Notes: generated by a model not told the origin, from the letters alone. Counted from the stretch's first letter, positions 1 to 51,513 are shown. The stretch: DNA of 64,000 nt from Patescibacteria group bacterium (GCA_018819405.1 JAHJQF010000001.1:907377-971376), one strand, 5' to 3'. Numbers and translations are program-made.

Positions 1-292
1 AAATGAGCAACCCGTATTCAGGATTTTGATGAGCAAACACTCCATCAACATGAGGTACTAGTTTGATAGCTAGTTTTTGAAAACGCCAAAATTCCCTAAG
101 ACGATTTTTGCCGTTTTCTTTGCCCAGAGAATATACAGACACATTGTCAGGTAGGCCTTCTATATTCCCCTTTTCCAGACAAATCACATCCAGATTTTCT
201 ATATTATTAGCCAATTTTTTGACCCAATTAAAACTAAAACCGGCCAAACCATCGTCTTTATCTACCTTTCTAGTAATCATCAGTAGTCTCAT
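1..292 (-). CDS. glycosyltransferase, N-terminal fragment (gene continues beyond window start)
   Basis: Reverse-strand translation from the ATG at 290-292 reads MRLLMITRKVDKDDGLAGFSFNWVKKLANN..., a typical GT4 N-terminus. The frame stays open to the window edge. It is not in the ORF track because it is partial. Confidence 0.5.
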   Translation of the reverse strand, partial: MRLLMITRKVDKDDGLAGFSFNWVKKLANNIENLDVICLEKGNIEGLPDNVSVYSLGKENGKNRLREFWRFQKLAIKLVPHVDGVFAHQNPEYGLLI

Positions 293-419
293 CCCGTTAG
301 AAATTTATTTTGTTAAACTTTTGTAAAAAATAATACCTATTAGCAAATTATTTTATTATCAACTATATAAATAATCATTTATAATTATAACCTATTGCCC
401 CGTGAATTTCTAACGGGAC

Positions 420-580
420 TCATATTTTTTTACCCCGTTGAATAATATTTAAGCTAAACTTAAATATTAAATTTAAATTATTAAAAAATATATCCAACTT
501 TCTAAATTTTATAAATAATAAATAATATATCAAGTACATATTTTACAGTTATTTAAATTTATTCAACGGGGTAAATCTTA
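420..580. repeat. about 150-bp AT-rich element bounded by 13-bp inverted repeats CCCCGTTGAATAA / TTATTCAACGGGG. Paralog at 25003-25145
   Basis: Direct read. Shared internal TAAGC..CTTAAATATTAAATTTAAATTA..AATTTAAATTTA. Confidence 0.7.
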
Positions 581-1265
581 ATTTAAAAACGTTAATAAAA
601 AATTCTATAGCATCTTTGGCGGACAACTTTGATTTTCCTTTTTCTCTATCCAAAAATACCGAAGGTATTTCTTTTATCCTAAAATTATTTTTTTCAGCAA
701 TATATATCATCTCAATCTGAAAAGCATAACCATTGCTTTTTATTTTTTTGTCTTTCAGAAAATCCAAAAACTTTCTATTGTAACACTTGAATCCAGCAGT
801 GACATCCTTTGTATTTAATGACAATATCAATCTAGAAATTGCCATAGCACCATTACTGGTCAAATGACGCCAAGCGTTCCAACCTACAATCTGGCCACCT
901 TTTATTTTTCTAGAAGCGAGCACTATATCAAAATTTTGACTTTGCTCTACCAACTTTATAATATCTTTTGGATTGTGAGAAAAATCAGCATCCATAGATA
1001 TCACAAAATCATATTTTTTTTCTCTAGCAAACTCAAATGCCTCTTGATAGGCTGAACCAAGACCTAGCTTACCAGGACGTTTTTTTAAAAATAAACTATC
1101 ACTATATTTATTTTGCAAATTTTCTACCAGGCCGGCTGTATTGTCTGGAGAATTATCATCAACTATCAAAATATCCAAAGACAAGGACAAATTTTTGATA
1201 GCTATTATCAAATCAGATATATTTTCTTTTTCATTATAGGTTGGTATAACTACCAAGTATTTCAT
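549..1265 (-). CDS. GT2-family glycosyltransferase (polyprenol/dolichol-phosphate mannosyltransferase-like)
   Basis: Has the VVIPTYNEKENI and DADFSH motifs typical of DPM1-like GT2 enzymes. Length 238 aa. Confidence 0.75.
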   Translation of the reverse strand: MKYLVVIPTYNEKENISDLIIAIKNLSLSLDILIVDDNSPDNTAGLVENLQNKYSDSLFLKKRPGKLGLGSAYQEAFEFAREKKYDFVISMDADFSHNPKDIIKLVEQSQNFDIVLASRKIKGGQIVGWNAWRHLTSNGAMAISRLILSLNTKDVTAGFKCYNRKFLDFLKDKKIKSNGYAFQIEMIYIAEKNNFRIKEIPSVFLDREKGKSKLSAKDAIEFFINVFKLRFTPLNKFK

Positions 1266-2458
1266 AACTGATTATTTACTATTTTAAACCAAAAGTCTTT
1301 TACCTGACCAAATGTCCGACCACGACTATAAGTATCGGCAAACTCCTGTTTGATTTTGATACCAATTAATTTTACCAAATCTTCATTATCCAAGAGGTAT
1401 ACTAATTTAGCAGTAGTATTTTCCAAATCATTTATATCCACCAGCCAGCCATTTTGACCATCTTCTATAATAGCTGAAGGACCTAGTGATCTGGATGCCA
1501 AAGTAGGTGTAGCAGACAAACCTGATTCAATAATCACTTTGCCAAAACTCTCACTAACTGACAAGAGAATAGATAAATAAGCGGCTTGGTAATAAACCAA
1601 TAATTCATTATGCTCTTTGGCTCCCAAAAAAAATACCAAATCCTGCAAATCATTTTGATTAACAAAATTTATTAATTTGTCATGCTCTGTGCCCTCGCCA
1701 ACCAAAAGCAAAACAAAATTATTTCTTTTTTCTTTCAGTTCTTTAATGAGCTCCAAAAGGAAAGTGAGATTTTTTTCTGGCACCAGACGACCGACAAAAA
1801 GTATTATTTTTTTATTGGAATATTTATTTTTTATATCGGATATCTGCTGGTTATCTAGGTCCAATACAAATTTTTCCGTATCAACCGGGGTATTAATCAC
1901 CTGTATTTTACTTTCATTAATACCTGAAAAAACCAGCTTTTCCTTTATTTTTTTGTTTACTACCCTGATAGCATCAGCATTTTTGACTGTTTTTTTCTGC
2001 AAAATATTGAAAATGCGATGTTTAAAAGATAAGGCTAACCAGCGTGGATTGTCCCAAAAATCACCGTGAAAATGAAGCTCAAATTTTATTTTGTATTTCT
2101 TTTTTAAAAACATGCCCAAAAGCCCAGTCAAATGAGGATCCTGAGTGTCAACCAAATCATATTTGTTTTTTTTCATCAAATCTTTGGCCAAAACCCAAGC
2201 TTGATACAAAGACAAAAATTTGTTGCCCACTCCATAGACCTGAAGATTGTCAGATAAAATACTGCCGGAATTATTGGTTTTACCCAAGACAATGATATCC
2301 AGACGTTTGAGGCTCTTGGCATACTCTCGATGACGGCTAATAGAGTCCCCACTACTAGAGCTATTTAAGAGCCCAGTATCAAAACTAATCATTAATATTG
2401 AAATGTCTTTCAAATCTATCACCCCATTAGAAATTATTTTTTGCTCTACTTTTTCCAT
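1262..2458 (-). CDS. glycosyltransferase family 4
   Basis: C-terminal GT4 motif (VGEGTEH... ESFGKVIIESGLSATPTLASR). 398 aa. Confidence 0.75.
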   Translation of the reverse strand: MEKVEQKIISNGVIDLKDISILMISFDTGLLNSSSSGDSISRHREYAKSLKRLDIIVLGKTNNSGSILSDNLQVYGVGNKFLSLYQAWVLAKDLMKKNKYDLVDTQDPHLTGLLGMFLKKKYKIKFELHFHGDFWDNPRWLALSFKHRIFNILQKKTVKNADAIRVVNKKIKEKLVFSGINESKIQVINTPVDTEKFVLDLDNQQISDIKNKYSNKKIILFVGRLVPEKNLTFLLELIKELKEKRNNFVLLLVGEGTEHDKLINFVNQNDLQDLVFFLGAKEHNELLVYYQAAYLSILLSVSESFGKVIIESGLSATPTLASRSLGPSAIIEDGQNGWLVDINDLENTTAKLVYLLDNEDLVKLIGIKIKQEFADTYSRGRTFGQVKDFWFKIVNNQL

Positions 2459-2534
2459 AAAGTGGAATATATAATCATTTATTTATTATTTTGCCAATCT
2501 CCCCTGCTAGAGTGAATTTCTAACGGGGTAAATT

Positions 2535-3647
2535 TTATTTAGCAAAAATAGTTATAGTATCTCTGGCTGCCTGATTATAAGAATAATCATAATTAAGCTC
2601 TGAAATAACTTTTGTATAATCTTGGTAAACTTTTTCATCAAGCAGTTCATCAATGGCCCTAGTCATATCCTGATAACTCAATGGATCAAAAGTTCTAATC
2701 TTATCACGCAACCAAGAAAAACCAATTTCACTGGTACTTAGTATTGGCACATTGAGACTGACTGCTTCAAGCATTGAATTGGGGCTGATATCAGTCAGTG
2801 ACGGCCAGACTAGCAGATAGGCATTGGCAATTCTTTTTTTCAAATCCTGACGAGAAAGTTTTTCTTCCATGTGAATATTATCGGCACCAAGCTCAGCAAT
2901 TAAATTTTGTATATCTTTTTTGAGAGGCCCTTCACCAATGAGTACCAAAGTGTATGAATGATCATGAATATCATGAAAGGCTCTGATAAAATTCAATATA
3001 TTATTTTTGTGAATAAAGCGTCCTGAAAAAATTATTTCTTTACTGACTTGCTCTCTGACAATAGCATCTGATAAGACAATTGGATTTTTGATAATAAAAA
3101 GTTTGTTATCTGCTAATTCATAATATTTTTTAAAAATTTCTTTTTGGAAACTAGTAGTAAAAATAATGCCCGTAGCCTGCCTGAAAATAAATCTTATGAT
3201 TTTGAACCTAAAATTTTCTGCTTGCTTATGAATACCTCGTTTATAAAAATCATGTAAAGTAACCAAGGCACCTGTCATATCCAAATATCTTTCCCAAATA
3301 AAATCACCACCGACCCTAATATAAAATGGCTTTTTATAAATACGGCAAAATAAAGCTGTAGGAATACCGGCACTAAAATGATCAAAACTATATATAATAT
3401 CGGCGTTTTTGGCTATTTTTTGAAGCTTTTGAAAATATCTCCAATAATTAAGCAATTTATTGGCTCGTTTTATCCTAAAAACAGGGTAGCCAAAACCACT
3501 GTCAAAATCATACCTAGCCTTGTCAGAATAAGTAAGTACTTCTACTTTGTGCCCCATTTTTATAAATTCTCTGGCAATATTGGGAGCATAAGTAGCTGGG
3601 CCACCAAGCTCTGGCACAAAAATTCCTGTTGCTATCACTATTTTCAC
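2535..3647 (-). CDS. glycosyltransferase (GT4-like), GTG start
   Basis: N-terminus MKIVIATGIFVPELGGPATYAPN. GT-B fold signature. 370 aa. Confidence 0.65.
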   Translation of the reverse strand: MKIVIATGIFVPELGGPATYAPNIAREFIKMGHKVEVLTYSDKARYDFDSGFGYPVFRIKRANKLLNYWRYFQKLQKIAKNADIIYSFDHFSAGIPTALFCRIYKKPFYIRVGGDFIWERYLDMTGALVTLHDFYKRGIHKQAENFRFKIIRFIFRQATGIIFTTSFQKEIFKKYYELADNKLFIIKNPIVLSDAIVREQVSKEIIFSGRFIHKNNILNFIRAFHDIHDHSYTLVLIGEGPLKKDIQNLIAELGADNIHMEEKLSRQDLKKRIANAYLLVWPSLTDISPNSMLEAVSLNVPILSTSEIGFSWLRDKIRTFDPLSYQDMTRAIDELLDEKVYQDYTKVISELNYDYSYNQAARDTITIFAK

Positions 3648-3678
3648 CCCGTTAGAAATTAATTATTAAATTTATCCT

Positions 3679-3767
3679 TTTGTCATTGCGAGGATCCGCC
3701 AGCTGGCGGAGACGAAGCAATCTACAAGCTTTTAGATTGCCACGCCCTTCGGGCTCGCAATGACAAA
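3679..3767. repeat. 89-bp palindromic element with perfect 14-bp terminal inverted repeats (TTTGTCATTGCGAG / CTCGCAATGACAAA), abutting the GIY-YIG stop codon
   Basis: Terminal inverted repeats (TIRs) read directly. Inner CCGCCAGCTGGCGG hairpin. Conserved core AATCTACAAGCTTTTAGATT, shared with the repeats at 19981-20184. Confidence 0.7.
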
Positions 3768-3769
3768 TA

Positions 3770-4057
3770 TTACAATTTATTATATAAATTAGCCCAATTT
3801 TTATTATATTTTTCTATTAAATCAATCTTTTTCTGTCTTGACCCCGCTTTAATTTGCTTTTCTCTAGATATAGCTTCATAAGCATCTTCATATATTTCAT
3901 AATATACTAATTTATTGATACTATATCGTGATGTAAATGATTTATTATCTAGTTTTTCTTTATGTTGCCATACTCTAACAATTAAATCATTTGTTACTCC
4001 TGTATATAATGTACCCTGTTTATGATTAGCCAAAATATAAACAAAATATTGTCTCAT
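3770..4057 (-). CDS. GIY-YIG nuclease family protein (small, about 95 aa)
   Basis: YFVYILANHKQGTLYTGVTNDLIVRVWQHK = GIY...YIG motif. Confidence 0.8.
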   Translation of the reverse strand: MRQYFVYILANHKQGTLYTGVTNDLIVRVWQHKEKLDNKSFTSRYSINKLVYYEIYEDAYEAISREKQIKAGSRQKKIDLIEKYNKNWANLYNKL

Positions 4058-4083
4058 CGCTTTTCTTCATATTTAATTGTAAA

Positions 4084-19980: not shown

Positions 19981-20184
19981 TGCGCGATTATTTTATTCAC
20001 TCCTTGTCATTCCGGACTCGCTCCGGAATCTACAAACTTTTAGTTTCCCGCTTGCGCGAGAATGACGAGAAGAGGTTAGCGATTATTTTATGCACTCCTT
20101 GTCATTCCGGACTCGCTCCGGAATCTACAAACTTTTAGTTTCCCGCTTGCGCGAGAATGACGAGAAGAGGTTAGCGATTATTTT
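19981..20184. repeat. about 2.2 tandem copies of a 95-bp structured repeat (CACTCCTTGTCATTCCGGACTCGCTCCGGAATCTACAAACTTTTAGTTTCCCGCTTGCGCGAGAATGACGAGAAGAGGTTAGCGATTATTTT)
   Basis: Exact 95-bp period (19998 and 20093). Internal hairpins. Family member of the element at 3679-3767. Overlaps the last 4 codons of the sigma gene. Confidence 0.85.
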
Positions 20185-25002: not shown

Positions 25003-25145
25003 ATATTTACCCCGTTAAATAATATTAAGCCATTAGCTTAATATTAAATTTAAATTAAACAAATATTTTATTAATATAATTTTTATTTTTTATATATAAA
25101 TACATAATAATATAACTAAAATTTAAATTTATTTAACGGGGTGAA
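25003..25145. repeat. about 135-bp AT-rich element bounded by inverted repeats CCCCGTTAAATAA / TTATTTAACGGGG
   Basis: Direct read. Confidence 0.7.
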
Positions 25146-25597
25146 AATTTAATAATATCACCTTTTTTTATTCCTAAAGAATCTATGGTTCCAGCTGGTA
25201 ACTCCATAACCTTGTCTACTTCTAAAACCGGATAATATCTCCTGAGTTCAAAATCATTGGCCACCGCCGGCATATTTTTTTCATAATCTACAATTGTCTG
25301 ATTATCAATCCATAAAAGATCAATATCAAATTTCATGCCTTTCATCCAAAATGCTGGTTTGCTTTTTTCCGGAAAGATAAATAGCATTGCCTGATTGTCG
25401 GCCAAAAAATCACGCCCAGCTAGACCCAATCGGCGACTTTGATTGTCGCTGGCAATCTCCAGATCAAAGGCTTGGCCGGCTATATAAGCTTTGGGCAAAT
25501 TTTCTTCTGACTTATCAGAATCAGACCAATAGTATATACCAACCACAAAAAAGATAAACAAAAACCACAAAATACTAATTTTTTTCATCAGCTCCAT
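25133..25597 (-). CDS. DUF192 domain protein
   Basis: GLAGRDFLADNQAMLFIFPEKSKPAFWMKGMKFDIDLLWID matches DUF192/COG1430. Confidence 0.55.
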   Translation of the reverse strand: MELMKKISILWFLFIFFVVGIYYWSDSDKSEENLPKAYIAGQAFDLEIASDNQSRRLGLAGRDFLADNQAMLFIFPEKSKPAFWMKGMKFDIDLLWIDNQTIVDYEKNMPAVANDFELRRYYPVLEVDKVMELPAGTIDSLGIKKGDIIKFSPR

Positions 25598-28471: not shown

Positions 28472-28516
28472 AAAAAAACAACCTTCGAGGTTAATCTAAC
28501 CTCGAAGGTTGTTTTA
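28472..28516. terminator. hairpin terminator after secY (AACCTTCGAGGTT-n5-AACCTCGAAGGTT plus T-run). Same hairpin recurs at 42026-42067
   Basis: Direct read. Confidence 0.7.
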
Positions 28517-28524: not shown

Positions 28525-29802
28525 TTAAAATCCTTCGTAATCTCTCATTACCAATTGAGCATCAATTTGTTTTACTGTCTCAATAACTACAGCGACTGTA
28601 ATCAACAAGCTAGTGCCGCCGATAGACAAAGTGGCAATGCCGGTCAAAGGTCCGACAATCAAAGGAAGTATAGCTATCAGACCCAAAAATATAGCCCCAG
28701 CCAAAACAATCTTCAACATGACAGAGTTTAAATAATCAGAAGTATAACGTCCTGGACGAATGCCCGGTATAAAACCTCCCTGTTTCTGCAAATTTTCTGC
28801 AATCTGAGTTGGTTTGAATATTACTGAAGTATAAAAGAAAGTAAATAATACAACCATTATAAAATAGAACACTCCATAAAAAAGACCATTGGCAAACAAA
28901 TCTTTTATCCATAGAGAAGAGCTGGCTATCCAAGCAACCTGTGATCTCTCAAAAAATTGAGCAACCATTGGCGGAAATATAATAACTGAAATAGCAAAAA
29001 TGATTGGGATGACTCCGGCTTGGTTTACGCGAAGTGGTAAATGAGTATTTACTCCTCCCACATTTCTCTGACCGACCACGTGTCTAGCATAAGACACTGG
29101 GATATTTCTAGTACCTTCAGTAATAATAACAATAGCGGCAATGGTTATCAAAGAGATAATAACAAAAACCAATAAACTTAATACCATGGTATTGTCAAAG
29201 GCAATAAAAGTATTCCTGATGGACTGCGGTAAGCTACTCACAATACCAGCAAAAATAATCAGTGATATGCCATTACCAATATGACGTTCAGTAATAAGCT
29301 CACCTAACCACATCAAAAATATAGTGCCAGCCGTAATAATAATTATAGTAGTTATCAATTGAAAAGCAGTAATATCTGCCAAAAGTCTGCCCTGAGTCTG
29401 GTTGGAAATAAGTCTAATAAATGAATAACCCTGTATAGCAGCCAAAGGTATAGTAAGCATCCTTGTCCATTGGTTTATTTTTTGTGATCCGGCTTCTCCT
29501 TCTTTTTGGATAGCTTCTAATTTTGGTACAATCATAACCAGAAGCTGAAATATAATTGAGGCCGTAATATAAGGACCAACCCCAAGCATAACTACAGAAA
29601 AATTCTGCATGGCACCGCCTGAAAACAAATCAAGCATACCCAAAACCTGATTGCCCTGGAAATACTGCTCCAAATCACTGGCATTAATACCAGGCACAGG
29701 AATATGAGCAGCAATTCTAAAAACAACCAACAGGGCTAAAACATAAAAAATACTGTTTCTGACATCTTTGGCCTTCCAAATTTGTTGTAGTTTAGCTAAC
29801 AT
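28525..29802 (-). CDS. secY: preprotein translocase SecY
   Basis: 425 aa, 10 TM, conserved SecY blocks. Confidence 0.9.
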   Translation of the reverse strand: MLAKLQQIWKAKDVRNSIFYVLALLVVFRIAAHIPVPGINASDLEQYFQGNQVLGMLDLFSGGAMQNFSVVMLGVGPYITASIIFQLLVMIVPKLEAIQKEGEAGSQKINQWTRMLTIPLAAIQGYSFIRLISNQTQGRLLADITAFQLITTIIIITAGTIFLMWLGELITERHIGNGISLIIFAGIVSSLPQSIRNTFIAFDNTMVLSLLVFVIISLITIAAIVIITEGTRNIPVSYARHVVGQRNVGGVNTHLPLRVNQAGVIPIIFAISVIIFPPMVAQFFERSQVAWIASSSLWIKDLFANGLFYGVFYFIMVVLFTFFYTSVIFKPTQIAENLQKQGGFIPGIRPGRYTSDYLNSVMLKIVLAGAIFLGLIAILPLIVGPLTGIATLSIGGTSLLITVAVVIETVKQIDAQLVMRDYEGF

Positions 29803-29807: not shown

Positions 29808-29845
29808 TAGTTTAAAGTTTAAAGTTAGAAAGTTTCAAAATTATT
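29808..29845. repeat. AAAGTTT-repeat element between L15 and secY
   Basis: tagtttaaagtttaaagttagaaagtttcaaaatt. Confidence 0.6.
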
Positions 29846-31078: not shown

Positions 31079-31435
31079 TTAAAATTTTACACCTGATTTT
31101 CTGATGCCTTCAGCTAGAGCCTTGACTCTACCATGATATTTATAAGCACCTTTATCAAAAACTATTTTATCAATTTTTTTGTCCATCAATTTTTTGCCAA
31201 TAGCTTCACCTACCAAAGCAGCTTTTTCAGTCTTATTACCCTTGGCCTTGATTTCTTTATCACTGATAGCCGTCAAAGTCTTGCCAGCTATATCATCAAT
31301 AGCTTGAGCACTAATGTGCATCAAACTTCTAAAAACTGACAATCGTGGTTTTTCTGGAGTACCTGTCATTTTGACACGAGTACGACGCTGTCTTCTGATA
31401 AATTTATCTTTTTTTAATTTGGCTTTATCTTTCAT
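31079..31435 (-). CDS. rplR: 50S ribosomal protein L18
   Basis: Order and sequence. Confidence 0.85.
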   Translation of the reverse strand: MKDKAKLKKDKFIRRQRRTRVKMTGTPEKPRLSVFRSLMHISAQAIDDIAGKTLTAISDKEIKAKGNKTEKAALVGEAIGKKLMDKKIDKIVFDKGAYKYHGRVKALAEGIRKSGVKF

Positions 31436-31547
31436 CCCGTTAGAAATTACTTTTGTAAAATATCTAATTGTTCTTTATATATTATCTAAATATACTTTTC
31501 CTAATTTATTACTCCCGTTGTCTATCATCTAATTTCTATAGGGAATA

Positions 31548-32107: not shown

Positions 32108-32186
32108 TTAGTTTAAAGTTTAAAGTTTAAAGTTTCAAGTTCATATTATACAAATCTTTGAACTTTTAACTTAGAACTTTTTACTA
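32108..32186. repeat. AAAGTTT-repeat element between S8 and L6. On the mRNA strand it contains an extended -10 TGTATAAT
   Basis: agtttaaagtttaaagtttaaagtttcaagttcatattatacaaatctttgaacttttaac. Confidence 0.6.
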
Positions 32187-34313: not shown

Positions 34314-34550
34314 TTATTTCTTTTCCTCTGACACTTCTTCTTTGGCTGGAGCAACATTTTTACCCAACCTTTTTTCATTTAAAACAGTCAAAATCTTGGC
34401 AATATCTTGTTTGGCAACCCTCAAATCTCTGACTTTTTTCAATTGATTGTTGGCAATAGAAAATCTAAACTCACGGGTTTTGTTGCGCAGCTCTGCTAAT
34501 TTTTCATTTAGCTTAGCATTATCCAATTTTCTTAATTCTTTGATTTTCAT
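34314..34550 (-). CDS. rpmC: 50S ribosomal protein L29 (true start at the internal Met MKIKELRKL)
   Basis: L29 N-terminus. The ORF track start lies 21 codons upstream in non-homologous sequence. Confidence 0.8.
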   Translation of the reverse strand: MKIKELRKLDNAKLNEKLAELRNKTREFRFSIANNQLKKVRDLRVAKQDIAKILTVLNEKRLGKNVAPAKEEVSEEKK

Positions 34551-34627
34551 CCTGTTAGAAATTATAGTGAAATTAACTCTTTGTCCTTTATTTTTAGCCC
34601 CGCCAGTAAACATAAATTTCTAACGGG
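34551..34627. repeat. inverted pair of the CCCGTTAGAAAT-family motif (CCTGTTAGAAATT ... AAATTTCTAACGGG) filling the L16-L29 intergenic gap
   Basis: Direct read. Confidence 0.7.
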
Positions 34628-34637
34628 ATTCATGATT

Positions 34638-40069: not shown

Positions 40070-40113
40070 TTAATTTGTACGAATTAAATTTACTTAAATG
40101 GACAATTTTATAA

Positions 40114-40140
40114 CCCAGCCCCTCGCGAGGGGCTGGGAAA
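40114..40140 (-). terminator. GC palindrome CCCAGCCCCTCGCGAGGGGCTGGG after tuf / in the S10 leader
   Basis: Perfect 10-bp stem. Weak U-run on the minus strand. Confidence 0.6.
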
Positions 40141-40146
40141 ATAAAT

Positions 40147-41334
40147 TTACTTTAAAATTTTGGTTACTACAGCAGCACCAACAGTACGTCCGCCTTCGCG
40201 GATAGCAAACTTGGATTTTTCTTCCAAAGCTACTGGAGCTATCAATTTGATCTTCAAATTGATAGTATCTCCTGGCATAACCATCTCAGTACCTTCTGGT
40301 AATTCAACTTCACCGGTTACATCAGTAGTACGGATATAAAACTGTGGCTTGTATCCTTTGAAAAATGGAGTGTGACGTCCACCTTCTTCTTTACTCAAGA
40401 TATAAGCTTCAGCTTCAAATTCAGTGTGAGGAGTGATAGAACCTGGTTTGGCCAAAACTTGTCCACGTTGTATTTCATCTTTTTTGGTACCACGTAACAA
40501 AATTCCAGCATTGTCTCCTGCCCTACCTTCTTCCAACTGCTTATTAAACATCTCAATACCAGTAACAACAGTCTTGCTAGTGTCTTGTAGACCGACCATT
40601 TCAACTTCGTCATTTAGTTTGACAACTCCTCTTTCAATACGTCCGGTAACTACAGTACCACGACCTTCAATTGAAAAGATGTCTTCAATAGGCATTAAGA
40701 ATGCGTGTTCAGTATCACGTTTTGGTTCTGGGATATACTCATCCAAAGATTTGATCAAATCCAAAATTGGTTTTGAATCATCACCTGATGGATTTTCCAA
40801 GGCTTTCAAAGCGGTACCTCTGATAATTGGAGTTTCATCGCCTGGGAATTCATATTTCTTTAACAAATCTCTAATTTCTTCCTCAACTAGATCTACGAGT
40901 TCTGGATCATCAACTTGGTCCATTTTGTTCAAAAATACAACAATGTATGGGACACCAACCTGACGAGCAAGTAAAATATGTTCTCTAGTCTGAGGCATTG
41001 GACCATCAGCAGCTGATACTACCAAAATAGCACCATCCATCTGAGCGGCACCAGTAATCATGTTTTTGACATAGTCAGCGTGACCTGGACAGTCTACGTG
41101 AGCGTAATGTCTTTTTTCTGACTCATACTCAACATGAGCAGTGGCAATAGTAATACCACGTTCTCTTTCTTCAGGAGCATTATCAATCTGATCAACGTCC
41201 TTTTGCTGAGCAACACCACCATGAGCGGCTAATACCTTCAAAATGGCGGCAGTCAGGGTAGTTTTACCGTGGTCTACGTGACCAATAGTACCCACATTTA
41301 TGTGTGGCTTTTCTCTTTTAAAAGCTTCTGCCAT
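40147..41334 (-). CDS. tuf: elongation factor Tu (start at [18 protein letters not shown]-track start is an upstream TTG)
   Basis: [11 protein letters not shown]-loop. Full EF-Tu. Confidence 0.9.
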
Positions 41335-41894: not shown

Positions 41895-41972
41895 CAGTTT
41901 AAAGTTTGAAAGTTATAAAATTTAAAGTCATTTTTTCTACTTTTTAACTTTGAACTTTTTAACTTTTTACTG
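41895..41972. repeat. AT-rich AAAGTTT/AACTTT repeat element. Family with 29808-29845 and 32108-32186
   Basis: Direct read. Confidence 0.6.
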
Positions 41973-42025
41973 ATTAAAGTGCTAGTATTTTATAGTAAAA
42001 TTAAGGCTTTTGTCAAATTTTAATC

Positions 42026-42067
42026 TAACCTTCGAGGTTAGATTTAACCTCGAAGGTTGCTTTTTTC
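42026..42067 (+). terminator. hairpin AACCTTCGAGGTT-n6-AACCTCGAAGGTT plus T-run. Insulates the promoter at 42070
   Basis: Near-identical to the secY terminator at 28472-28516. Confidence 0.65.
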
Positions 42068-42069
42068 TA

Positions 42070-42098
42070 TTGACAAAATAATAAATATGTGATATAAT
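42070..42098 (+). promoter_or_regulatory. consensus sigma70 promoter TTGACA-17-TATAAT
   Basis: Perfect hexamers and spacing. Confidence 0.7.
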
Positions 42099-42324
42099 AT
42101 TACATTACTATAAAAAGTTCTTTAAAAGTGGGATTTCCCAGGTACAAACTTGGAGGTTGGAGAGCAGATAAACTAGCTAGATTTTATTGGGTCTCTACTC
42201 AACAATTTCAGCCTAATTATCTGGTCTAAGCTGGCTTCGGCCAAAAGCTAGACATCTCTCCTCCAAATTTGTGCCTGGAAAAATACTCCTGGTACAGCTC
42301 AACCCATCCAAGGAAGGAAACGCC

Positions 42325-42471
42325 ATGTTGGTACTGGCTTACTGCCTCTGCAAGCAGGCTCCCCGAGCCGCGGCCAAGGTCTCCTACCTGATGCTCTGCA
42401 CCATGGTCGGCCCGACCCTGATTCTCCTGTCCGCCATGATCGCAGGGATGATCTACTCCCTGCACCTCTAA
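42325..42471 (+). CDS. 48-aa hydrophobic Cys-rich peptide (MLVLAYCLCKQAPRAAAKVSYLMLCTMVGPTLILLSAMIAGMIYSLHL) with strong SD AAGGAAGGAAA
   Basis: SD 6 nt upstream. One predicted TM helix. GC-rich codons. Confidence 0.4.
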   Translation: MLVLAYCLCKQAPRAAAKVSYLMLCTMVGPTLILLSAMIAGMIYSLHL

Positions 42472-42586
42472 AGATCTGAACACAACACCAACACCCGCCA
42501 GGATCCCACCTTTCAAAGACCTATCTCGAATAGGCCCCCTCCTAAGTCTATAAAAAATTATAGATTTGGGAGGGATATAATAAGGC

Positions 42587-42625
42587 CCGGTAATTATTTA
42601 CCGGTCTTTATTTTATTTTTAAAAA
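42587..42625 (+). terminator. intrinsic terminator CCGGTAA ttat TTACCGG plus long T-run
   Basis: Direct read. Confidence 0.75.
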
Positions 42626-42678
42626 AATATATAATAAAATTAGTTCTTTCCACCACCCACACCTGAGGAGGTGAAACC

Positions 42679-42879
42679 ATGCTGGGCATAAAACAAAAAC
42701 AATGTTTAATCGAAGGCCTGACAAGGCAAATCCGAGAAATTCGTATCAAAAAAATAACTAATCCAGTACAGATAGAAAAAATTATCCTGTACGCTATGCA
42801 AATGCGCCGAGAAAATATAATAAATGATTTCCAAGAAATCGGCACAACCAACGCTGAATTATTATCCTGGCTACCCTAA
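42679..42879 (+). CDS. 66-aa hypothetical protein with strong SD (GAGGAGGTGA)
   Basis: SD. Followed by the terminator at 42922-42962. Confidence 0.5.
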   Translation: MLGIKQKQCLIEGLTRQIREIRIKKITNPVQIEKIILYAMQMRRENIINDFQEIGTTNAELLSWLP

Positions 42880-42921
42880 GGAGAAAGGCCTAAACATGTT
42901 ACCAACAACCTAAAACCACCT

Positions 42922-42962
42922 ACTTCACGGAAGATTGGGTGGTTTTATATTTGAAGATATCT
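42922..42962 (+). terminator. intrinsic terminator AAAACCACC...GGTGGTTTT plus T-run
   Basis: Direct read. Confidence 0.7.
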
Positions 42963-42984
42963 TAAATAAAATAACTTTTATTAG

Positions 42985-43013
42985 TTGACAAAAACTATAC
43001 AATATACTATGAT
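42985..43013 (+). promoter_or_regulatory. sigma70 promoter TTGACA-17-TATGAT. Downstream near-palindrome TGTCAATTGATA in the leader
   Basis: Direct read. Confidence 0.6.
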
Positions 43014-43069
43014 AACTCTCTGTAATGTTCCCTGTCAATTGATAACCTCAGACTCAAAGGAGTGAGTTC

Positions 43070-43480
43070 ATGCCACTTGAATTTCAGCTTTTGTCACTGA
43101 TTGAGCTACGCCAATACGTGGCTCAGCTCAACGAAAATTCTCATCCCGGGTTTGTGTTTCGTATCTTGGTACAGTGTCTGTGCCAGATAAAGGCCGGTGC
43201 TTGCTGGCCACAAATTGGCACGACCCAAGTCGACATGCAGACGCTGATGCGCGTCTGTCACAAAAACCAGGTGAGACGTGAACTTCAGGCCATCCTGGCC
43301 AAAAATGAGTACACACCGCTGAATTTTGATGACGCGGAAAAACTGAGCTGCATCATGGAGGAGATCCAGCAATGTCACATCAATTGGAATGATCTTCCTG
43401 TATCTGAGAATGTATTGAGACAAATCATCAATATGGCCGCTTGCGGCTATGAACACTGCAATCAGCAAAAAATGGCCTGA
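43070..43480 (+). CDS. 136-aa Cys-rich hypothetical protein (about 50% GC), SD AAGGAG
   Basis: Good RBS. Own promoter and terminator. No recognisable domain. Confidence 0.55.
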   Translation: MPLEFQLLSLIELRQYVAQLNENSHPGFVFRILVQCLCQIKAGACWPQIGTTQVDMQTLMRVCHKNQVRRELQAILAKNEYTPLNFDDAEKLSCIMEEIQQCHINWNDLPVSENVLRQIINMAACGYEHCNQQKMA

Positions 43481-43482
43481 GT

Positions 43483-43530
43483 CTCGCCCCGCCGAACGCT
43501 ATCAAGCGTGAGGCGGGGTTTCTTTTTTAT
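43483..43530 (+). terminator. intrinsic terminator CTCGCCCCGCC...GGCGGGGTTTCTTTTTTATTTT
   Basis: Direct read. Confidence 0.8.
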
Positions 43531-43689
43531 TTTAATTTTTGAGTAAAGACTTTTTGTAATACTTTTCAAAATTACTTTCAGCAAAAAAATCCCAGCCTCT
43601 TAGCCATATTTTTATTTTTCTTTTTAGCATAAACATATATTTTAATTAGCTATAATATACAACGAAAAAATAAAATAAAAGTAACAAAA

Positions 43690-43713
43690 AAGGAGCGGAC
43701 TGATGCCCGCTCC
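43690..43713 (-). terminator. terminator hairpin GGAGCGG..CCGCTCC plus T-run (minus strand) after cdd
   Basis: Direct read. Confidence 0.6.
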
Positions 43714-44237: not shown

Positions 44238-44320
44238 GACTAGCCTCCTCGTTTGTGCCATATACCTCTGGACAGAACTAAACTGGCTATAAATTAGCAA
44301 TAAAATATTTTTCTGTCAAA

Positions 44321-44349
44321 CCGCGTTAGAAAAATTTTTTCTAACGCGG
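44321..44349. repeat. palindrome CCGCGTTAGAAAAA/TTTTTTCTAACGCGG (CCCGTTAGAAAT-family variant)
   Basis: Direct read. Confidence 0.7.
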
Positions 44350-44350
44350 T

Positions 44351-44405
44351 AAACAAAAAACCCAGTCCTTCCTGCCTACCGATAGGCAAAGCACGAAGAA
44401 CTGGG
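44351..44405 (-). terminator. fusA terminator (CCCAGTCCTTC...GAAGAACTGGG plus U-run on minus strand)
   Basis: Direct read. Confidence 0.7.
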
Positions 44406-44419
44406 TAAATTTATATAAT

Positions 44420-46513
44420 CTAATTTTTCTTAATTATCTCTTCAGCAACATTGTGAGGCACCTGAGCATATTTTTTGAACTCCATAGAATAACTAGCTCG
44501 TCCCTGAGTCATAGATCTTAGAGCGGTAGCATAACCAAACATCTCAGATAGTGGCACTTCGGCATCAATAACCTTGGCACCAGCTCTATCGCTCATTTCA
44601 TGAACCTGTCCTCTCTTGGAATTCAAATCACCAATCACATCGCCCATGTATTGTTCGGGAGTGACTACTTCTACCGCCATGACTGGCTCTAAAATAACCG
44701 GGGTAGCTTTTTTGAAAGCTTCTTTAAAAGCCATTGAACCAGCTACTTTAAAAGCAGCTTCAGAAGAGTCAACATCATGGTAACTTCCATCATAAACAGC
44801 TACTTTAACATCTTGTATTTGATAACCAGCCAATATTCCGTTGTCCATGGTTTCTTTGATACCTTTTTCAATAGCCGGAATATATTCTTTTGGAATAACG
44901 CCACCTTTGATTTCTTCTTCAAACTCAAATCCAGTACCTCTTTCAAGTGGTTCCAATCTCAACCAACAATGACCATACTGACCACGACCACCAGATTGTT
45001 TGATATATTTTCCTTCTGCCTCGGCAGTAGCCGTAATGGTTTCTTTGTAAGCGACTTGTGGGGCACCGACATTGGCCTCAACCGAAAACTCACGCTTCAT
45101 ACGATCCACAATAATATCCAAATGAAGCTCTCCCATACCACCAATAATAGTTTGATTTGTTTCTTCATCTGATCGGACAGTAAAGGTTGGGTCTTCTTCG
45201 GCTAATTTTGCCAGAGCCATACCCATCTTTTCTTGATCAGCTTTGGTTTTTGGTTCAACTGCCACATGAATAACTGGTTCTGGGAAATCCATACTTTCAA
45301 GGACTACTTCTCTTTTTTCATCACAAAGAGTCTGACCAGTAGTTGTATCTTTTAGGCCAACAACAGCTACGATATCACCAGTAAATATTTCAGATACTTC
45401 TTCACGAGAGTTGGCGTGCATTCTAAGAATTCTTCCAATCCTCTCTCTTTTCTCGGTATTGGCATTAAAAACATAAGAGCCGGATTTTAATGTACCAGAA
45501 TAAACTCTTACAAAAGTCAGTTTACCAACATAAGGATCAGTCGCCACTTTAAAAGCCAAACCTACAAAAGGATCCTCATCTTTAGCCAAGACCGTGATAT
45601 GATTTTCTTCATTTCTTGGTTCGTGTCCGACAATTTCTGGTACATCAAGTGGAGATGGTAAATACGCAACAATGGCATCTAGCAAAAACTGAACTCCTTT
45701 GTTTTTTAAAGCTGAACCGACAAAAACTGGCACAATCTTGTTGCCAATAACGGCCTGTCTCAAAACTTTTTTCAAATCTTCAATAGCTGGTTCTTCTCCG
45801 CCAAGATATTTTTCCATCAAGGCTTCATCGTTTTCTACAATCGCTTCAATAAGTTTTCCACGGAATTCTTCTACCTTATCTTTCATGTCAGCTGGTACTT
45901 CACGTTTTTCAAATTGTTTACCGTCTTCATCAAGATAATACCAAGCTTCTCTTTCTAAAAGATTGATAATGCCTTCAAAAGTTTCAGCTGCTCCAATTGG
46001 CAACTGCATTGGATGGGCAGATTTTGTCAATCTATCATGAATAGTTTTTAAATCATAATAAAAATCCGCACCCATTCTATCCATCTTGTTTACAAAGGCT
46101 AGGCGGGGCACATGATATTTGTCAGCCTGTCTCCAGACAGTCTCCGACTGTGGTTCTACTCCAGCTACTCCATCAAAAACAATCACACCACCATCAAGCA
46201 CGCGCAATGATCTTTCTACTTCTACAGTAAAATCTACGTGACCTGGGGTATCAATAATATTGATATTGGCTTTGTCACCACCCAACCAGTCAGGTAAATT
46301 CCAAAAACAAGTAGTCGCGGCAGAAGTAATGGTAATACCTCTTTCCTTTTCCTGTTCCATCCAATCCATTTCAGCTTGCCCTTCATGGACTTCACCGATT
46401 TTATGTTTTTTTCCTGTATAAAAAAGAATACGCTCCGTCACGGTAGTCTTACCAGCATCAATATGAGCAATAATTCCAATGTTTCTTATTTTTTCAAGTG
46501 GATGTCGAGGCAT
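44420..46513 (-). CDS. fusA: elongation factor G
   Basis: AHIDAGKTT, full-length EF-G. Confidence 0.95.
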
Positions 46514-47512: not shown

Positions 47513-47546
47513 ATTTAACTTAAAAAATAAAAAATACGACTGTTCT

Positions 47547-47576
47547 TCCCGCGTAGCGGGATCCCGCTACGCGGGA
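47547..47576. promoter_or_regulatory. perfect 30-bp GC palindrome TCCCGCGTAGCGGGA|TCCCGCTACGCGGGA in the rpsL leader, followed by a U-run on the mRNA strand (attenuator/terminator or operator)
   Basis: Direct read. Confidence 0.6.
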
Positions 47577-47638
47577 AAAGTCCCCAATAAAATAGCATAA
47601 AAAAATATATAAGTCAAGAATAATAGCCAAAATTAATA

Positions 47639-48360: not shown

Positions 48361-48640
48361 GGTTAGACTTCTCCTTGTCTCAGATACAATAGTTTTGCCT
48401 CATTGAGGCGCTTCGAAAAACTGCAGGTGTGAATACACTGCTGTTCATGCTCTTACGGGTAGCGCAACCCCCCTTAACGCTTTTTAACTCCTTTACAAGG
48501 CAAATCAATTTCCATGTTCAAGGCAAGTTGTCGAGCAAAAGTTGCGTGAAATCTATAAATTAATCCTGTGACCAGGAAAAAATGCAACGAACTTTTACAA
48601 ACAATTATAAAAAATACACTAAAAATAAATTCTTGTCAAT

Positions 48641-48673
48641 AAAAAGAGCCCCCGCAGCATAAGCCGTGGGGGC
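48641..48673 (-). terminator. GC hairpin terminator (GCCCCCGCAGC...GCCGTGGGGGC plus U-run)
   Basis: Direct read. Confidence 0.6.
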
Positions 48674-48716
48674 CTGTCGATCACTCTACGACCACGTGAG
48701 GCCAATGCGGCCTGGG

Positions 48717-48827
48717 TCAGGCGATCGTCACCTCGCTCGCCGTCGTCTTCTTGACGGTCTTCTTCTTGGTAGCCTTCTTGGCGACCATCTTCATCTGCAT
48801 CTGGACACTGGGTCTTCGTCGATTCAT
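48717..48827 (-). CDS. 36-aa lysine-rich peptide MNRRRPSVQMQMKMVAKKATKKKTVKKTTASEVTIA with SD AAGGAGGA
   Basis: Strong SD 8 nt upstream. Flanked by terminators on both sides. The upstream 43 codons of the track ORF are AT-rich non-coding-like. Confidence 0.45.
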   Translation of the reverse strand: MNRRRPSVQMQMKMVAKKATKKKTVKKTTASEVTIA

Positions 48828-48929
48828 ATTGGGAATCCTCCTTATGGTATCACAATGACAGACAAATGTGCTGACTATGATAGCCAGCACGCGAGTATAT
48901 TTATAATAACATAAGCAAAAAAAACAAAC

Positions 48930-49006
48930 AATAAAAAAGAGCCCCCGCGGAAGCACCTCACTGGGCGCGATACTGAGATCGCGTGCAGAGGGTGCCCCGC
49001 GGGGGC
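48930..49006 (-). terminator. compound GC hairpin terminator (GCCCCCGCGG...CCGCGGGGGC) plus U-run
   Basis: Direct read. Confidence 0.6.
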
Positions 49007-49082
49007 CAGCAGCCTGATTGGCCAGCTTGGCGATGGGCGTATAGCCCGTGAAGACGCTGGCGACAGGCCGAAGCGCGTCACC

Positions 49083-49175
49083 TTACTGGGTCTCCAGCCC
49101 AGGGGTGACAGGCGTGGTCATCGGAGGCGCGTCGGACGCCTCGGCAGGAACATCGGGCAGGGTCCAGAAGAGCAT
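49083..49175 (-). CDS. 30-aa peptide MLFWTLPDVPAEASDAPPMTTPVTPGLETQ (SD GGAAAGGAG). Start overlaps the upstream stop (ATGATG)
   Basis: Paralogous N-terminus to 49175..49330. Confidence 0.3.
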   Translation of the reverse strand: MLFWTLPDVPAEASDAPPMTTPVTPGLETQ

Positions 49176-49330
49176 CATCGCTCCTTTCCGGCAACTGCCG
49201 AAGGTTGTCTGTAGCGCTCGGTCCATACGCCGGCCTCAACGGCGCGGTACCACCTGTGGCACGAACTGTTTCCGACGAGCTTAGTCGCCGGGTTCGCACC
49301 CGAATCGTCGGGAAGGAGCCAGTAGAGCAC
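49175..49330 (-). CDS. 51-aa peptide (GTG start) VLYWLLPDDSGANPATKLVG... (SD GAAAGGAG)
   Basis: DNA around the start about 80% identical to the next ORF start. The SD region is also palindromic, so it may be RNA structure instead. Confidence 0.25.
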   Translation of the reverse strand: MLYWLLPDDSGANPATKLVGNSSCHRWYRAVEAGVWTERYRQPSAVAGKER

Positions 49331-49415
49331 TGCTTCTCCTTTCGACTGGTTGTGTAGCTCCGAAGTGGAGCTACATGGTGCGGCTAGCTAGCCGCCGGGG
49401 CGCTGGCGCCCAGGT

Positions 49416-49523
49416 CTAGCTGCCGCGCCGCCGGCCGCGGACGTCGGTCGTGGAGGTGTTGCCCATGAGCACGAAATAGTTCGTGTAAGTGGCGACCGGA
49501 CGGCCGCGGATGTGGATCGACAT
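49416..49523 (-). CDS. 35-aa peptide MSIHIRGRPVATYTNYFVLMGNTSTTDVRGRRRGS (SD GGGAGGA). Member of the M-x-I-R-x-R-G-R-P short-ORF family
   Basis: SD 6 nt upstream. DNA about 80% identical over the first 10 codons to 54092..54136. Confidence 0.4.
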   Translation of the reverse strand: MSIHIRGRPVATYTNYFVLMGNTSTTDVRGRRRGS

Positions 49524-49678
49524 TGGGATCCTCCCGTCGTTGCATCATGGCAGGTTTTGTCCAGACTAGCTGGACGCTACATCCCACTTGGGGATACCAT
49601 TTTCCGTTGCTTAGACTTGTTGCGTATTCACTAGGAAATGATCGGGCGACTAAAAATATTTTTTAATCACGATTTTGT

Positions 49679-49706
49679 ATTATAGCACAAATAAAAAATT
49701 TGTCAA
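49679..49706 (-). promoter_or_regulatory. sigma70 promoter TTGACA-16-TATAAT whose -35 is embedded in the palindrome TTTGTCA-n8-TGACAAA (49699-49720)
   Basis: Direct read on the minus strand. Confidence 0.65.
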
Positions 49707-50467: not shown

Positions 50468-50659
50468 ATGGCCAAAGTATGTGAAATTTGTAATAGAGGT
50501 AAACTAAGTGCTAATACCCGCAGTCATTCCAATATTGCTAGCAAGAGAACCATGAAGCTGAATTTGCAATCCAAAAAAATTGGCAACAGCAAAATGACTG
50601 TTTGCACTTCTTGTTTGAAAACTCTAAACAAACTTAGAAAAAATCAAACTATAAAATAA
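50468..50659 (+). CDS. rpmB: 50S ribosomal protein L28
   Basis: MAKVCEICNRGKLSANTRSHSNIASKR. Confidence 0.85.
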   Translation: MAKVCEICNRGKLSANTRSHSNIASKRTMKLNLQSKKIGNSKMTVCTSCLKTLNKLRKNQTIK

Positions 50660-50673
50660 ATTATTTTTTTCAA

Positions 50674-50712
50674 CCGTCCCCTCATAGCAGGGGGCGGTTT
50701 TTTAATTTTTTG
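50674..50712 (+). terminator. rpmB terminator (CCGTCCCC..GGGGCGG plus T-run)
   Basis: Direct read. Confidence 0.7.
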
Positions 50713-50765
50713 AATAAAAATAAAGCGGGCGCCTGATGACATACATGATGCAAAAGTGGCGCCCG
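50712..50765 (-). terminator. terminator of the GC-rich gene (GCGGGCGCC...GGCGCCCG plus U-run)
   Basis: Direct read. Confidence 0.6.
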
Positions 50766-50785
50766 GAAAAGGGTCTTGGGCCAAA

Positions 50786-51085
50786 CTACCTGCTACTAGC
50801 GCAGGCCATGACGATCTTCTTGATCAGTCTCCTGACAGGGTGAGCCCTGATCAGCTCATCGCCGATGATCTGGTAGTGTCTTCCCTCACCATGAGGATCG
50901 AGATAGACCAGACGGGTCCGCGTATCCCAGATGGGCCAAGGTTGGCCTGCTCTGCGCAGACGACCGGTCGAGACATAGTCTCTTCCATCATAGCTCTGCT
51001 CTTCCACCAGTTCAACCGATGAAAAATTGTTGGGAAAAGGCACCCAACGGCGTCCGTCAATCGTCGCCCCAGCTTGTTTCGACAC
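50786..51085 (-). CDS. GC-rich (about 55%) hypothetical protein, about 100 aa, GTG start with SD GGAGG
   Basis: SD plus GTG. Own terminator. No recognisable domain. Confidence 0.4.
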   Translation of the reverse strand: MSKQAGATIDGRRWVPFPNNFSSVELVEEQSYDGRDYVSTGRLRRAGQPWPIWDTRTRLVYLDPHGEGRHYQIIGDELIRAHPVRRLIKKIVMACASSR

Positions 51086-51486
51086 AAGTAACCTCCAGTG
51101 TTTGTTTGGGCCAATATATGTGGCTGATAAAGCCACGGGATGAACAAAATATATTTTACAATACCACTCTTTGCAATTTTGGTCAATTATAAAAACCCCT
51201 GGCCTAAACTCGGGGTAAAAACAAAAAGGCGTTGTTATAGTTTGAAAAACTAATAAAACACCTTTTTGCTAGCCATTTTGTTGCATGAATTTGTGCCTTA
51301 GTAATTAATGACTATTGTAGCTTTGCTTTTTTATATGTATAACCCCTTTGTAAAAGGGTGGTGCTCGCAGACTAAAGGCCCCAGCCCAAGACAATATAAA
51401 GCACCAAGGCAATAATGTTGTAGAGTTACATATGTTAAAAAGAAGCTACATTTATAATATAACATCTTTTAAAAATCATTGCAAAA

Positions 51487-51513
51487 CCCGTTAGAAATAT
51501 TATTTCTAACGGG
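51487..51513. repeat. perfect palindrome CCCGTTAGAAAT att ATTTCTAACGGG
   Basis: Direct read. Confidence 0.8.

Follow-up and report, generated by a model that had tools for sequence, protein, structure and literature searches.

Bacterial miniature inverted-repeat transposable elements (MITEs), such as the Neisseria Correia elements (CREE/NEMIS), the pneumococcal RUP and the enterobacterial ERIC sequences, are short and non-coding, end in terminal inverted repeats, duplicate their target and occupy many intergenic sites. They are co-transcribed with their neighbours, form long hairpins in mRNA and can alter the expression of downstream genes. Rickettsia palindromic elements (RPE) lie in frame within genes, whose proteins thereby gain internal peptide segments. 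Here we analyse a 64,000-nucleotide (nt) stretch from a Patescibacteria group bacterium (GCA_018819405.1 JAHJQF010000001.1:907377-971376), hereafter the window, in which a 12-nt motif recurs between genes and directly before start codons. The motif probably forms the terminal inverted repeats (13 bp) of a MITE-like mobile element that is small, non-coding and non-autonomous, and this element appears to be undescribed.

Filled sites, empty sites and target duplication

The motif is far more frequent in the window than its composition predicts. We call CCCGTTAGAAAT, read in mRNA sense, the 5' arm, its complement ATTTCTAACGGG the 3' arm, and a pair with the DNA between them an element; three-digit labels (L006-L126) denote database loci, and L3, L16, L18 and the like are ribosomal proteins. 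Eight exact copies of the 12-mer (293-304, 406-417, 2516-2527, 3648-3659, 31436-31447, 34616-34627, 51487-51498 and 51502-51513) and two with one mismatch (2423-2434 and 34551-34562) stand against 0.36 expected from dinucleotide shuffles, none of 100 shuffles reaches 10 copies at up to one mismatch, and at two mismatches there are 17 matches against 5.9 expected. A preliminary description of the window had claimed such a recurrent motif, and its copies hold up with positions correct to about one base (405-416 becomes 406-417, and 31437-31449 becomes 31436-31447). All ten arms are non-coding, though about 83% of the window is coding.

The copies are tied to the starts of genes, almost all of which lie on the minus strand. 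ATTTCTAACGGG or a variant abuts six start codons, those of a partial open reading frame (ORF; ATG 292), two GT4 glycosyltransferases (GTG 2422 and GTG 3647), L18 (31435), L29 (34550, variant CAGG) and NrdR (ATG 63815, variant TTCTAATTGG). Four of these had been recognised before, and GTG 2422 and the nrdR start are additions. Every one of the window's six non-palindromic copies is found at a start codon, and for NrdR and L29 Pfam alignments support the arm-abutting codon as the true N-terminus. The CCCGTTAGAAAT arm sits a few bases past the stop codon of the preceding gene. Four units consist of arm, 53 to 101 nt of AT-rich DNA, and arm: E1 (293-417), E2 (2423-2527), E3 (31436-31543) and E4 (34551-34627).

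Close relatives carry the same ribosomal-protein junctions without the element. E4 (34546-34633, minus strand) lies between rplP (L16) and rpmC (L29) and contains the inverted pair reported earlier, with one mismatch in one arm and none in the other. It reads, in mRNA sense, as an old start ATGAAT (34633-34628), the 5' arm (34627-34616), a 53-nt interior, the 3' arm ATTTCTAACAGG (34562-34551) and the L29 ATG (34550-34548), with TGAA duplicated at 34632-34629 and 34549-34546. We retrieved 80 metagenomic relatives of the window's ribosomal-protein operon through L16, yielding 505 kb of related loci, and read the L16-L29 junction directly from the sequences; a MAFFT alignment misplaced the flank. 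The closest relatives (L121, L122, L125 and L126, with 79-88% L16 identity) have TAA, 4-8 nt and ATGAAAAT. The window has TAAAATC-ATGAA-T[CCCGTTAGAAAT...ATTTCTAACAGG]-ATGAA-AATC, a precise insertion of about 82 nt with the start codon and the next two bases on both sides. Likewise, the L6-L18 junction of relatives runs TAA, 5-20 nt, ATGAA(A/G)GAT, and E3, which occupies this place in the window, is an insertion by comparison. The comparison with related genomes that had been proposed thus finds both junctions uninterrupted, in relatives with 60-88% L16 identity. Only three arms occur in the 505 kb of related loci, against two whole elements in the window's own operon, and the element is therefore patchy and lineage-specific, not ancestral to the operon.

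Paired arms from other genomes carry the same signature of insertion. We scanned the 16-mer AATTTCTAACGGGRTG in one genome per species (596 Gb, in which a few hundred chance matches of such a 16-mer are expected) and obtained at least 120 loci with 122 matches; the statistics below are among the matches listed. A match counted as paired if CCCGTTAGAAAT, at up to two mismatches and mostly exact, lay within 260 nt upstream, as it does for 103 of the 122. In these 103 elements we compared bases -5 to -2 left of the 5' arm with bases +2 to +5 right of the 3' arm. An exact 4-nt duplication flanks 60, against 34.9 +/- 2.6 in 5000 permutations, the highest of which gives 44. Where the right flank is other than TGAA, 14 of 29 still match (e.g. 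TGGA, TGAG, TGGG, TGCA) against 1.1 expected, and the duplicated 4-mers comprise TGAA, TGAG, TGGA, TGGG, TGCA, TCAA, TTTA and TTTG. The base between arm and duplication covaries, being C:G in 53 elements, T:A in 43 and another combination in 7. To the left of the left duplication stands an A, that of the old ATG, in 54 of the 60, and 26 of those have GTG as the right-hand start. Duplications are also found away from start codons: TCAA (L117), TTTA (L078 and L096) and TTTG (a palindrome at 51487 in the window, minus strand). Translational bypassing between take-off and landing codons does not fit these repeats, which are out of codon register, exclude the first base of the start codon and in the 26 cases place ATG on the left and GTG on the right.

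Movement by a recombinase is an improbable source of the same flanks. A folded or circular form might integrate by site-specific recombination, through a tyrosine recombinase, Xer or integron-type enzyme and not a DDE transposase, with ATTTCTAACGGG-ATGAAT-CCCGTTAGAAAT as the site and the flanking repeat as the crossover region. Three loci (L010, L025 and L069) do contain tandem junctions in the form of a 12 + 6 + 12 palindrome, GTTAGAA and TTCTAAC in the arms come close to the integron core GTTRRRY/RYYYAAC, the repeat looks slightly variable in length, and no transposase was found. Against this, target flanks are unlike the arms and offer no recognisable second site, and the duplicated 4-mer varies freely between copies. 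The core-like motifs also run 5'-GTTAGAA ... TTCTAAC-3', the reverse of the attC order 5'-RYYYAAC ... GTTRRRY-3', and we saw no integrase or other recombinase next to element copies in a search that was not exhaustive. An attC site proper is further contradicted by insertions that lie in a conserved operon and not at cassette boundaries.

Copies in the window and in other genomes

The remaining copies in the window differ in completeness. E1 (288-423, minus strand; arms by sequence) lies upstream of the partial 97-aa ORF, which has no Pfam match. In mRNA sense it comprises an old start ATGAGT (423-418), the 5' arm CCCGTTAGAAAT (417-406), a 101-nt AT-rich interior, the 3' arm ATTTCTAACGGG (304-293) and the new ATG (292-290); TGAG is duplicated at 422-419 and 291-288, and the arms pair in the minimum-energy structure (-26.5 kcal/mol, z = -2.6). 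E2 (2420-2534, minus strand) is of the GTG class, with the 5' arm (C)CCCGTTAGAAAT at 2528-2516, an 81-nt interior, the 3' arm ATTTCTAATGGG at 2434-2423 and GTG 2422-2420 of a GT4 glycosyltransferase. It has unequal flanks (TTTA and TGAT), a fold of -28.3 kcal/mol (z = -2.85) and an in-frame ATG at 2458 from which the predicted product would begin MEKVEQKIISNGV. E3 (31433-31543, minus strand), between rplF (L6) and rplR (L18), has a degenerate 5' arm CCCTATAGAAAT (31543-31532), an 84-nt interior and a 3' arm (31447-31436) directly before the L18 ATG (31435-31433), with no flanking duplication and a weak fold (z = -0.9). E4 likewise folds no better than shuffles (z about -1); its old ATG opens a short ORF of 23 codons that ends at TAA 34564-34562 and leaves 11 nt before the L29 ATG. 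Compared within the window, E1-E4 have only short stretches in common outside the arms.

Two further copies consist of a 3' arm. One, ATTTCTAACGGG at 3659-3648, abuts GTG 3647-3645 of the second GT4 glycosyltransferase (feature 3645-3659, minus strand), which matches Glyco_transf_4; profile position 2 aligns with residue 15, fitting a start at GTG 3647. There is no partner arm upstream, where an unrelated large hairpin element (3690-3775) lies instead. That hairpin belongs to a third repeat family, GC-rich and of the form TTGTCATTGCGAGG...CTCGCAATGACAA, whose second location (19984-20184) is a 95-bp unit repeated 2.1 times at 99% identity that has GTCATTCCGG...AATCTACAAACTTTTAG...GAGAATGAC in common with the family. 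The other copy is a remnant before nrdR, ATGAAT-TTCTAATTGG-ATGAAT (63813-63833, minus strand), in which a truncated, diverged 3' arm abuts the nrdR ATG (63815-63813) between the two halves of a 6-nt direct repeat; positions 1-42 of the NrdR zinc-ribbon profile align to residues 1-42.

Two perfect palindromes are best seen as minimal, arms-only copies inserted in the T-rich tails of terminators. The first (51487-51513, feature 51482-51518) joins two perfect 12-nt arms by a 3-nt loop, with a terminal A:T pair (51486/51514) and a duplication of CAAA (TTTG on the minus strand) at 51482-51485 and 51515-51518. Its hairpin is strong (-20.8 kcal/mol, z = -6.7), and it lies directly downstream of the native ndk terminator (51554-51529), which our terminator scan calls. 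The second (44320-44350, previously given as 44321-44349) has variant arms ACCGCGTTAGAAAAA / TTTTTCTAACGCGGT of 15 nt, 100% complementary, around a 1-nt loop (z about -6.5). It lies behind a hairpin CCCAGT...ACTGGG followed by TTTTTTG (44351-44420) that, by eye only, looks like the terminator of fusA, whose product EF-G was identified by Pfam. The paired motif had been called terminator-like; the palindromes fold strongly yet fail the T-tract criterion of the scan, which calls neither, so we reject an intrinsic-terminator reading.

Element copies are spread across several phyla. By record titles, the 102 loci with paired elements comprise 76 named Patescibacteria of many classes, 11 Planctomycetota, 4 Delta/Desulfobacterota and 11 other or unclassified; 14 of 18 unpaired matches fall in the other or unclassified group. 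None of 15 matches in viral contigs, our negative control, has a partner arm; all are single coding matches, and carriage by phages was therefore rejected. As read from the sequences, ORFs behind the arm in other genomes begin with the native N-termini of L36, L24, L9, L3, DnaA, pyruvate kinase, TsaD, ProS and Ndk. In a Yanofskybacteria locus (L048, about 1980-2093) the element lies between divergent ORFs with its arms flush with both starts (ATGCAAAA on the left, ATGAATTT on the right). In another sub-group the 5' arm is preceded on its left by a conserved (A)CTTGT, and the flanks are not duplicated. Its members are L012, L020 and L047, from Saccharibacteria metagenome-assembled genomes, L120 (Taylorbacteria), L105 at 6810 (Moranbacteria) and L032 (Paceibacterota), and they have either a longer end in a sub-family or a different insertion history.

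Whole units recur at unrelated loci. Interiors measure 0-169 nt, with modes near 52 and 77, and give element sizes of 24-190 bp; they mostly differ between genomes and track host GC content, and many are unrelated to each other. Four pairs of interiors are nonetheless shared between unrelated loci: L088/L021 and L006/L105 within single genomes, L106/L033 between genomes, and E2 of the window with L065. Their local alignment scores are 33-46, and their flanks score at background. Arm pairs 300-6000 nt apart enclose ordinary genes or rest on chance two-mismatch arms. Pfam scans of 20 of the roughly 66 window ORFs gave no transposase, and a literature search returned nothing relevant on the motif, on its peptides (ISNGV, NPVRN) or on such an element in Patescibacteria or the Candidate Phyla Radiation (CPR).

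This combination makes it very unlikely that the motif arose by point mutation and selection as the operator of a global DNA-binding regulator or as a DNA uptake sequence. The motif is indeed palindromic, over-represented and intergenic only, and its inverted pairs behind genes recall the uptake sequences of Neisseria and Haemophilus. Yet it is accompanied by 40-110 nt of additional DNA and by duplicated flanks, sits flush with the start codon and not at promoter distance, and precedes unrelated genes (ribosomal proteins, glycosyltransferases and nrdR here, dnaA and pyk in other genomes). Its density is only about 1 per 6 kb, and with 0 of 10 copies coding it differs from uptake sequences, which are also common within genes; the uptake reading is rejected on the last point and on the inserted block with its duplication. 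The preliminary description had suggested a site for a regulator or RNA-binding protein, or a processing site. The pattern needs neither and nothing shows either, but such a role after insertion is conceivable.

Translation starts and the proposed insertion mechanism

The window's genes initiate translation largely independently of Shine-Dalgarno sites. An SD-like (Shine-Dalgarno-like) 4-mer precedes only 5 of 66 genes; T stands at -1 in 47 of 66, A is strongly favoured from -6 to -4, and upstream regions are A-rich, giving the consensus AAA-n-T-ATG. A Shine-Dalgarno site is complementary to CCUCC and lies 5-10 nt ahead of the start codon. The arm ends in ACGGG at spacing 0, a position already noted as unusual for such a site, and we read its GGG as the end of the element and not as a ribosome-binding site. 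Such an SD-poor host would explain the tolerance of replacing the 13 nt before a start codon. A promoter reading fares no better, as sigma-70-like sites in and around E1-E4 occur at shuffle level (22 against 18.4 and 17 against 14.3) and the arm makes a poor -10 box. Comparison by eye only found no convincing match of the arm to a tRNA, an anticodon loop or rRNA.

Elements at start codons show three biases that bear on translation. First, 25 of 84 elements have an internal CGGG no more than 32 nt from the upstream arm, with which it could pair locally; the mirror-image order is seen in 4 of 84. Second, the short ORF from the old ATG stays open to the downstream arm in 20 of 61 elements, against 10.4 +/- 2.7 in interior shuffles (P about 3e-4), and there meets UAA at -7 or UGA overlapping RUGA, or continues in frame; 33 of the 61 end early. 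Third, an in-frame ATG lies 6-13 codons upstream without an intervening stop in 21 of 50 GTG-class and 0 of 44 ATG-class elements, where about 14% are expected in both, and the predicted GTG-class N-termini read M-x(3-6)-K-I-S-N-G-V, as in E2. Together these biases suggest either that only translation-compatible insertions survive or that the element is built for translation.

The same biases could mean that the element is primarily a cis-acting RNA. The arms would then form a long-range stem for translational coupling or insulation, or for RNase III processing into short-leader mRNAs, and would be kept by a conserved RNA-binding factor, with mobility secondary or absent. In minimum-energy folds the arms pair as far as the AU of AUG, and several flanks are compatible with G:U pairs (the TGAG and TGGG duplications, and TTTAC with GUGAA). 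The 3' arm carries stops in both non-gene frames at the start codon (UAA at -7, UGA in RUGA), relay short ORFs are enriched, orientation and start-codon class are biased, and arms are identical across phyla. We nevertheless hold a primarily RNA function to be unlikely. Close relatives have the same ribosomal-protein genes without the element, its distribution across related operons is patchy, its flanks carry a target duplication, and whole units recur at unrelated loci. Moreover, E3 and E4 fold at the level of shuffles, more than half of the short ORFs (the 33 of 61) stop early, and Rfam 15 yields no match to the motif elements at the gathering score, with E1-E4 giving only chance-level hits at E <= 5.

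A mobile element inserted next to start codons would bring these features together as follows. The unit, Y-CCCGTTAGAAAT ... interior ... ATTTCTAACGGG-R with paired end bases Y and R, would be mobilised in trans, presumably by a transposase, and would duplicate 4 bp of its target on insertion. Among surviving copies the favoured target would be TGRR, made up of the TG of a start codon and the two bases that follow it. To the left of the element the duplication would retain the old A-TGNN; on the right, the terminal purine and the duplicated TG would rebuild a start in the reading frame of the undamaged gene, ATG for T:A-ended elements and GTG for C:G-ended ones. The gene would thus survive with 40-110 nt of element between old and new start. 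Other copies would enter T-rich tails behind terminators, with duplications of TTTG or TTTA and often as minimal palindromes.

Hosts that initiate without a Shine-Dalgarno sequence could tolerate such insertions. In the RNA, pairing of the two arms may mask the AU of the start codon, and a local hairpin formed with the sub-terminal CGGG(R) near the upstream arm may compete with that pairing. In a third of elements a short ORF running to the stops of the downstream arm could melt the stem and permit re-initiation, and GTG-type elements would often bring their own in-frame ATG with a Lys-rich leader.

Several observations weigh against a MITE-like origin. Exact duplication is absent from 43 of the 103 paired elements listed, E2 and E3 of the window among them. 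A recurrent TTTAC-...-GTGAA class lacks it and is better described as a longer inverted repeat that includes a G:T pair, the Saccharibacteria class with left flank CTTGT lacks it too, and in a few copies the duplication seems to be 3 to 5 nt long. Interiors vary in length and sequence between genomes more widely than is usual for one MITE family. Arms that are exact at 12 of 12 positions in different phyla exceed the conservation usual for transposon ends, which is partly an artefact of a search whose query fixed one arm; the search pattern also ended in RTG, an ascertainment towards start codons. The availability of targets does not by itself explain the association with starts, given 256 intergenic TGRR sites in the window against 29 TGRR at start codons. 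The short-ORF and upstream-ATG enrichments may partly reflect inheritance within sub-families and not independent selection. Finally, no autonomous copy or transposase with these ends appeared in about 1.5 Mb of fetched locus fragments or in the window ORFs examined.

A bolder proposal, which we regard as possible but doubtful, is that the element is a mobile, portable translation-start module for bacteria that initiate without Shine-Dalgarno sequences. Such a module would home to starts and rebuild them, insulate them by its built-in stops, and relay ribosomes through the short ORF or bring its own ATG and Lys-rich leader. Its arms would be kept because some conserved factor of the host reads them, be it the ribosome, RNase III or an initiation factor, and in Patescibacteria the spread of the module would rewire the expression of core genes such as dnaA, nrdR and those for ribosomal proteins.

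The genomes of Patescibacteria are very small and streamlined and are thought to contain little mobile DNA; here a probable mobile element lies within the most conserved operon, at the first codon of essential genes, with those genes intact. If the element is what we propose, it provides a clean natural case of a transposon end shaped to regenerate a start codon. It would also account for mis-called N-termini in CPR gene predictions ('KISNGV' extensions and a 99-aa 'L29' ORF), mark recent gene flow among Patescibacteria, Planctomycetota and Desulfobacterota, and help to show how initiation without Shine-Dalgarno sites deals with structured 5' regions.

Neighbouring repeats and relation to known systems

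A second family of inverted repeats in the window shares its CCCGTT end with the first. The preliminary description had seen two elements bounded by CCCCGTT(G/A)AATAA, and both prove to be true inverted-repeat elements, homologous to each other. Copy a (429-575, about 147 bp, inverted repeat TTTACCCCGTTGAATAATATTTAA) has 24-nt arms that are 88% complementary. Copy b (25003-25148, inverted repeat ATATTTACCCCGTTAAATAATATTAA) has 26-nt arms that are 85% complementary and lies between a DUF192 gene and a gene starting at 25002 (AACGGGGTAAATAT-ATG). Arms of this family overlap gene 3' ends rather than start codons (549-575 and 25133-25148) and supply the last codons and the stop: the GT2 gene at 549-1265 ends ...TPLNKFK* within the arm of copy a, and the DUF192 gene ends ...HPVK* with TAA within that of copy b.

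Other features of the window are unrelated to these families. A tandem heptamer (AAACTTT)n, in 3.7-4.6 copies on the minus strand (29809-29835, 32110-32141 and 41896-41928), is a second start-proximal repeat. It stands directly upstream of genes starting at 29802 (425 aa, probably secY), 32102 (probably L6) and 41887 (a PhdYeFM-like protein), and a 19-mer of the array occurs 7 times against 0.22 expected. Perfect or near-perfect palindromes between genes at 28475-28515 (19-nt arms), 47546-47577 (16 nt) and 40104-40147 (22 nt) are probably ordinary terminators. Just downstream of nrdR, a cobalamin riboswitch (62919-63050, minus strand; 35.5 bits against a gathering score of 31.5) precedes ORFs of 172 aa (62364-62882) and 592 aa (60513-62291) that may be nucleotide-reduction genes. 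Two stretches, at about 42000-43700 and 48400-49700, have a GC content of 0.40-0.44 against about 0.34 and only short or conflicting ORFs, with no Rfam or tRNA match; they could represent foreign DNA or RNA genes missing from the annotation. On the minus strand, positions 49706-49679 contain a promoter-like site that matches the consensus perfectly (TTGACA-16-TATAAT with TG). A Pfam scan also found a CPR-typical DUF5667 protein encoded in the window; together with the scarcity of SD sites, the layout of small genes and the homologous element copies in CPR metagenome-assembled genomes, it makes a patescibacterial host probable from the sequence itself.

We know of no parent insertion sequence for the element's ends. 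IS1380-like families, which make duplications of 4, occasionally 5, bp and have ends beginning CC, offer a lead and not a classification. Integron attC sites, too, are imperfect palindromes (60-140 bp) between genes, and GTTAGAA/TTCTAAC resembles their GTTRRRY/RYYYAAC in the reversed order noted above. Repetitive extragenic palindromic (REP) sequences and REPINs are extragenic palindromes that sometimes form inverted doublets behind genes, as the minimal palindromes at 51487 and 44320 do. The element differs from them in its target duplication, its long variable interiors and the lack of a GTAG-type head, and a search that was not exhaustive revealed no RAYT-like gene, so we do not place it in the REP/REPIN-RAYT group. 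The earlier suggestion of a REP-like element therefore stands in so far as the motif is part of a repetitive mobile element; terminal inverted repeats, a 4-bp target duplication and filled and empty sites are not those of a strict REP.

Other likenesses are to the Rickettsia elements and to known MITEs. Like RPE, the element is a palindromic mobile repeat tolerated against coding sequence in small genomes, and part of it is translatable, here as the predicted GTG-class leader M-x-K-I-S-N-G-V. Unlike RPE, it lies at the very start of genes or behind terminators, and its ATG class leaves the native protein intact. With the Correia, RUP and ERIC elements it has in common short, non-coding, multicopy intergenic units with inverted ends and a target duplication, and filled and empty sites and homologous interiors are found as well, all of which are expected of a MITE. 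It departs from them in its arm sequence, in a duplication of 4 bp (TNNN) rather than TA, and in ends that stay invariant across several phyla around very different interiors. Also unlike them, it inserts exactly at the start codon, where its terminal purine rebuilds ATG or GTG, and it appears to be adapted to translation. Among known systems, the element works most like the Correia or RUP-type MITEs.

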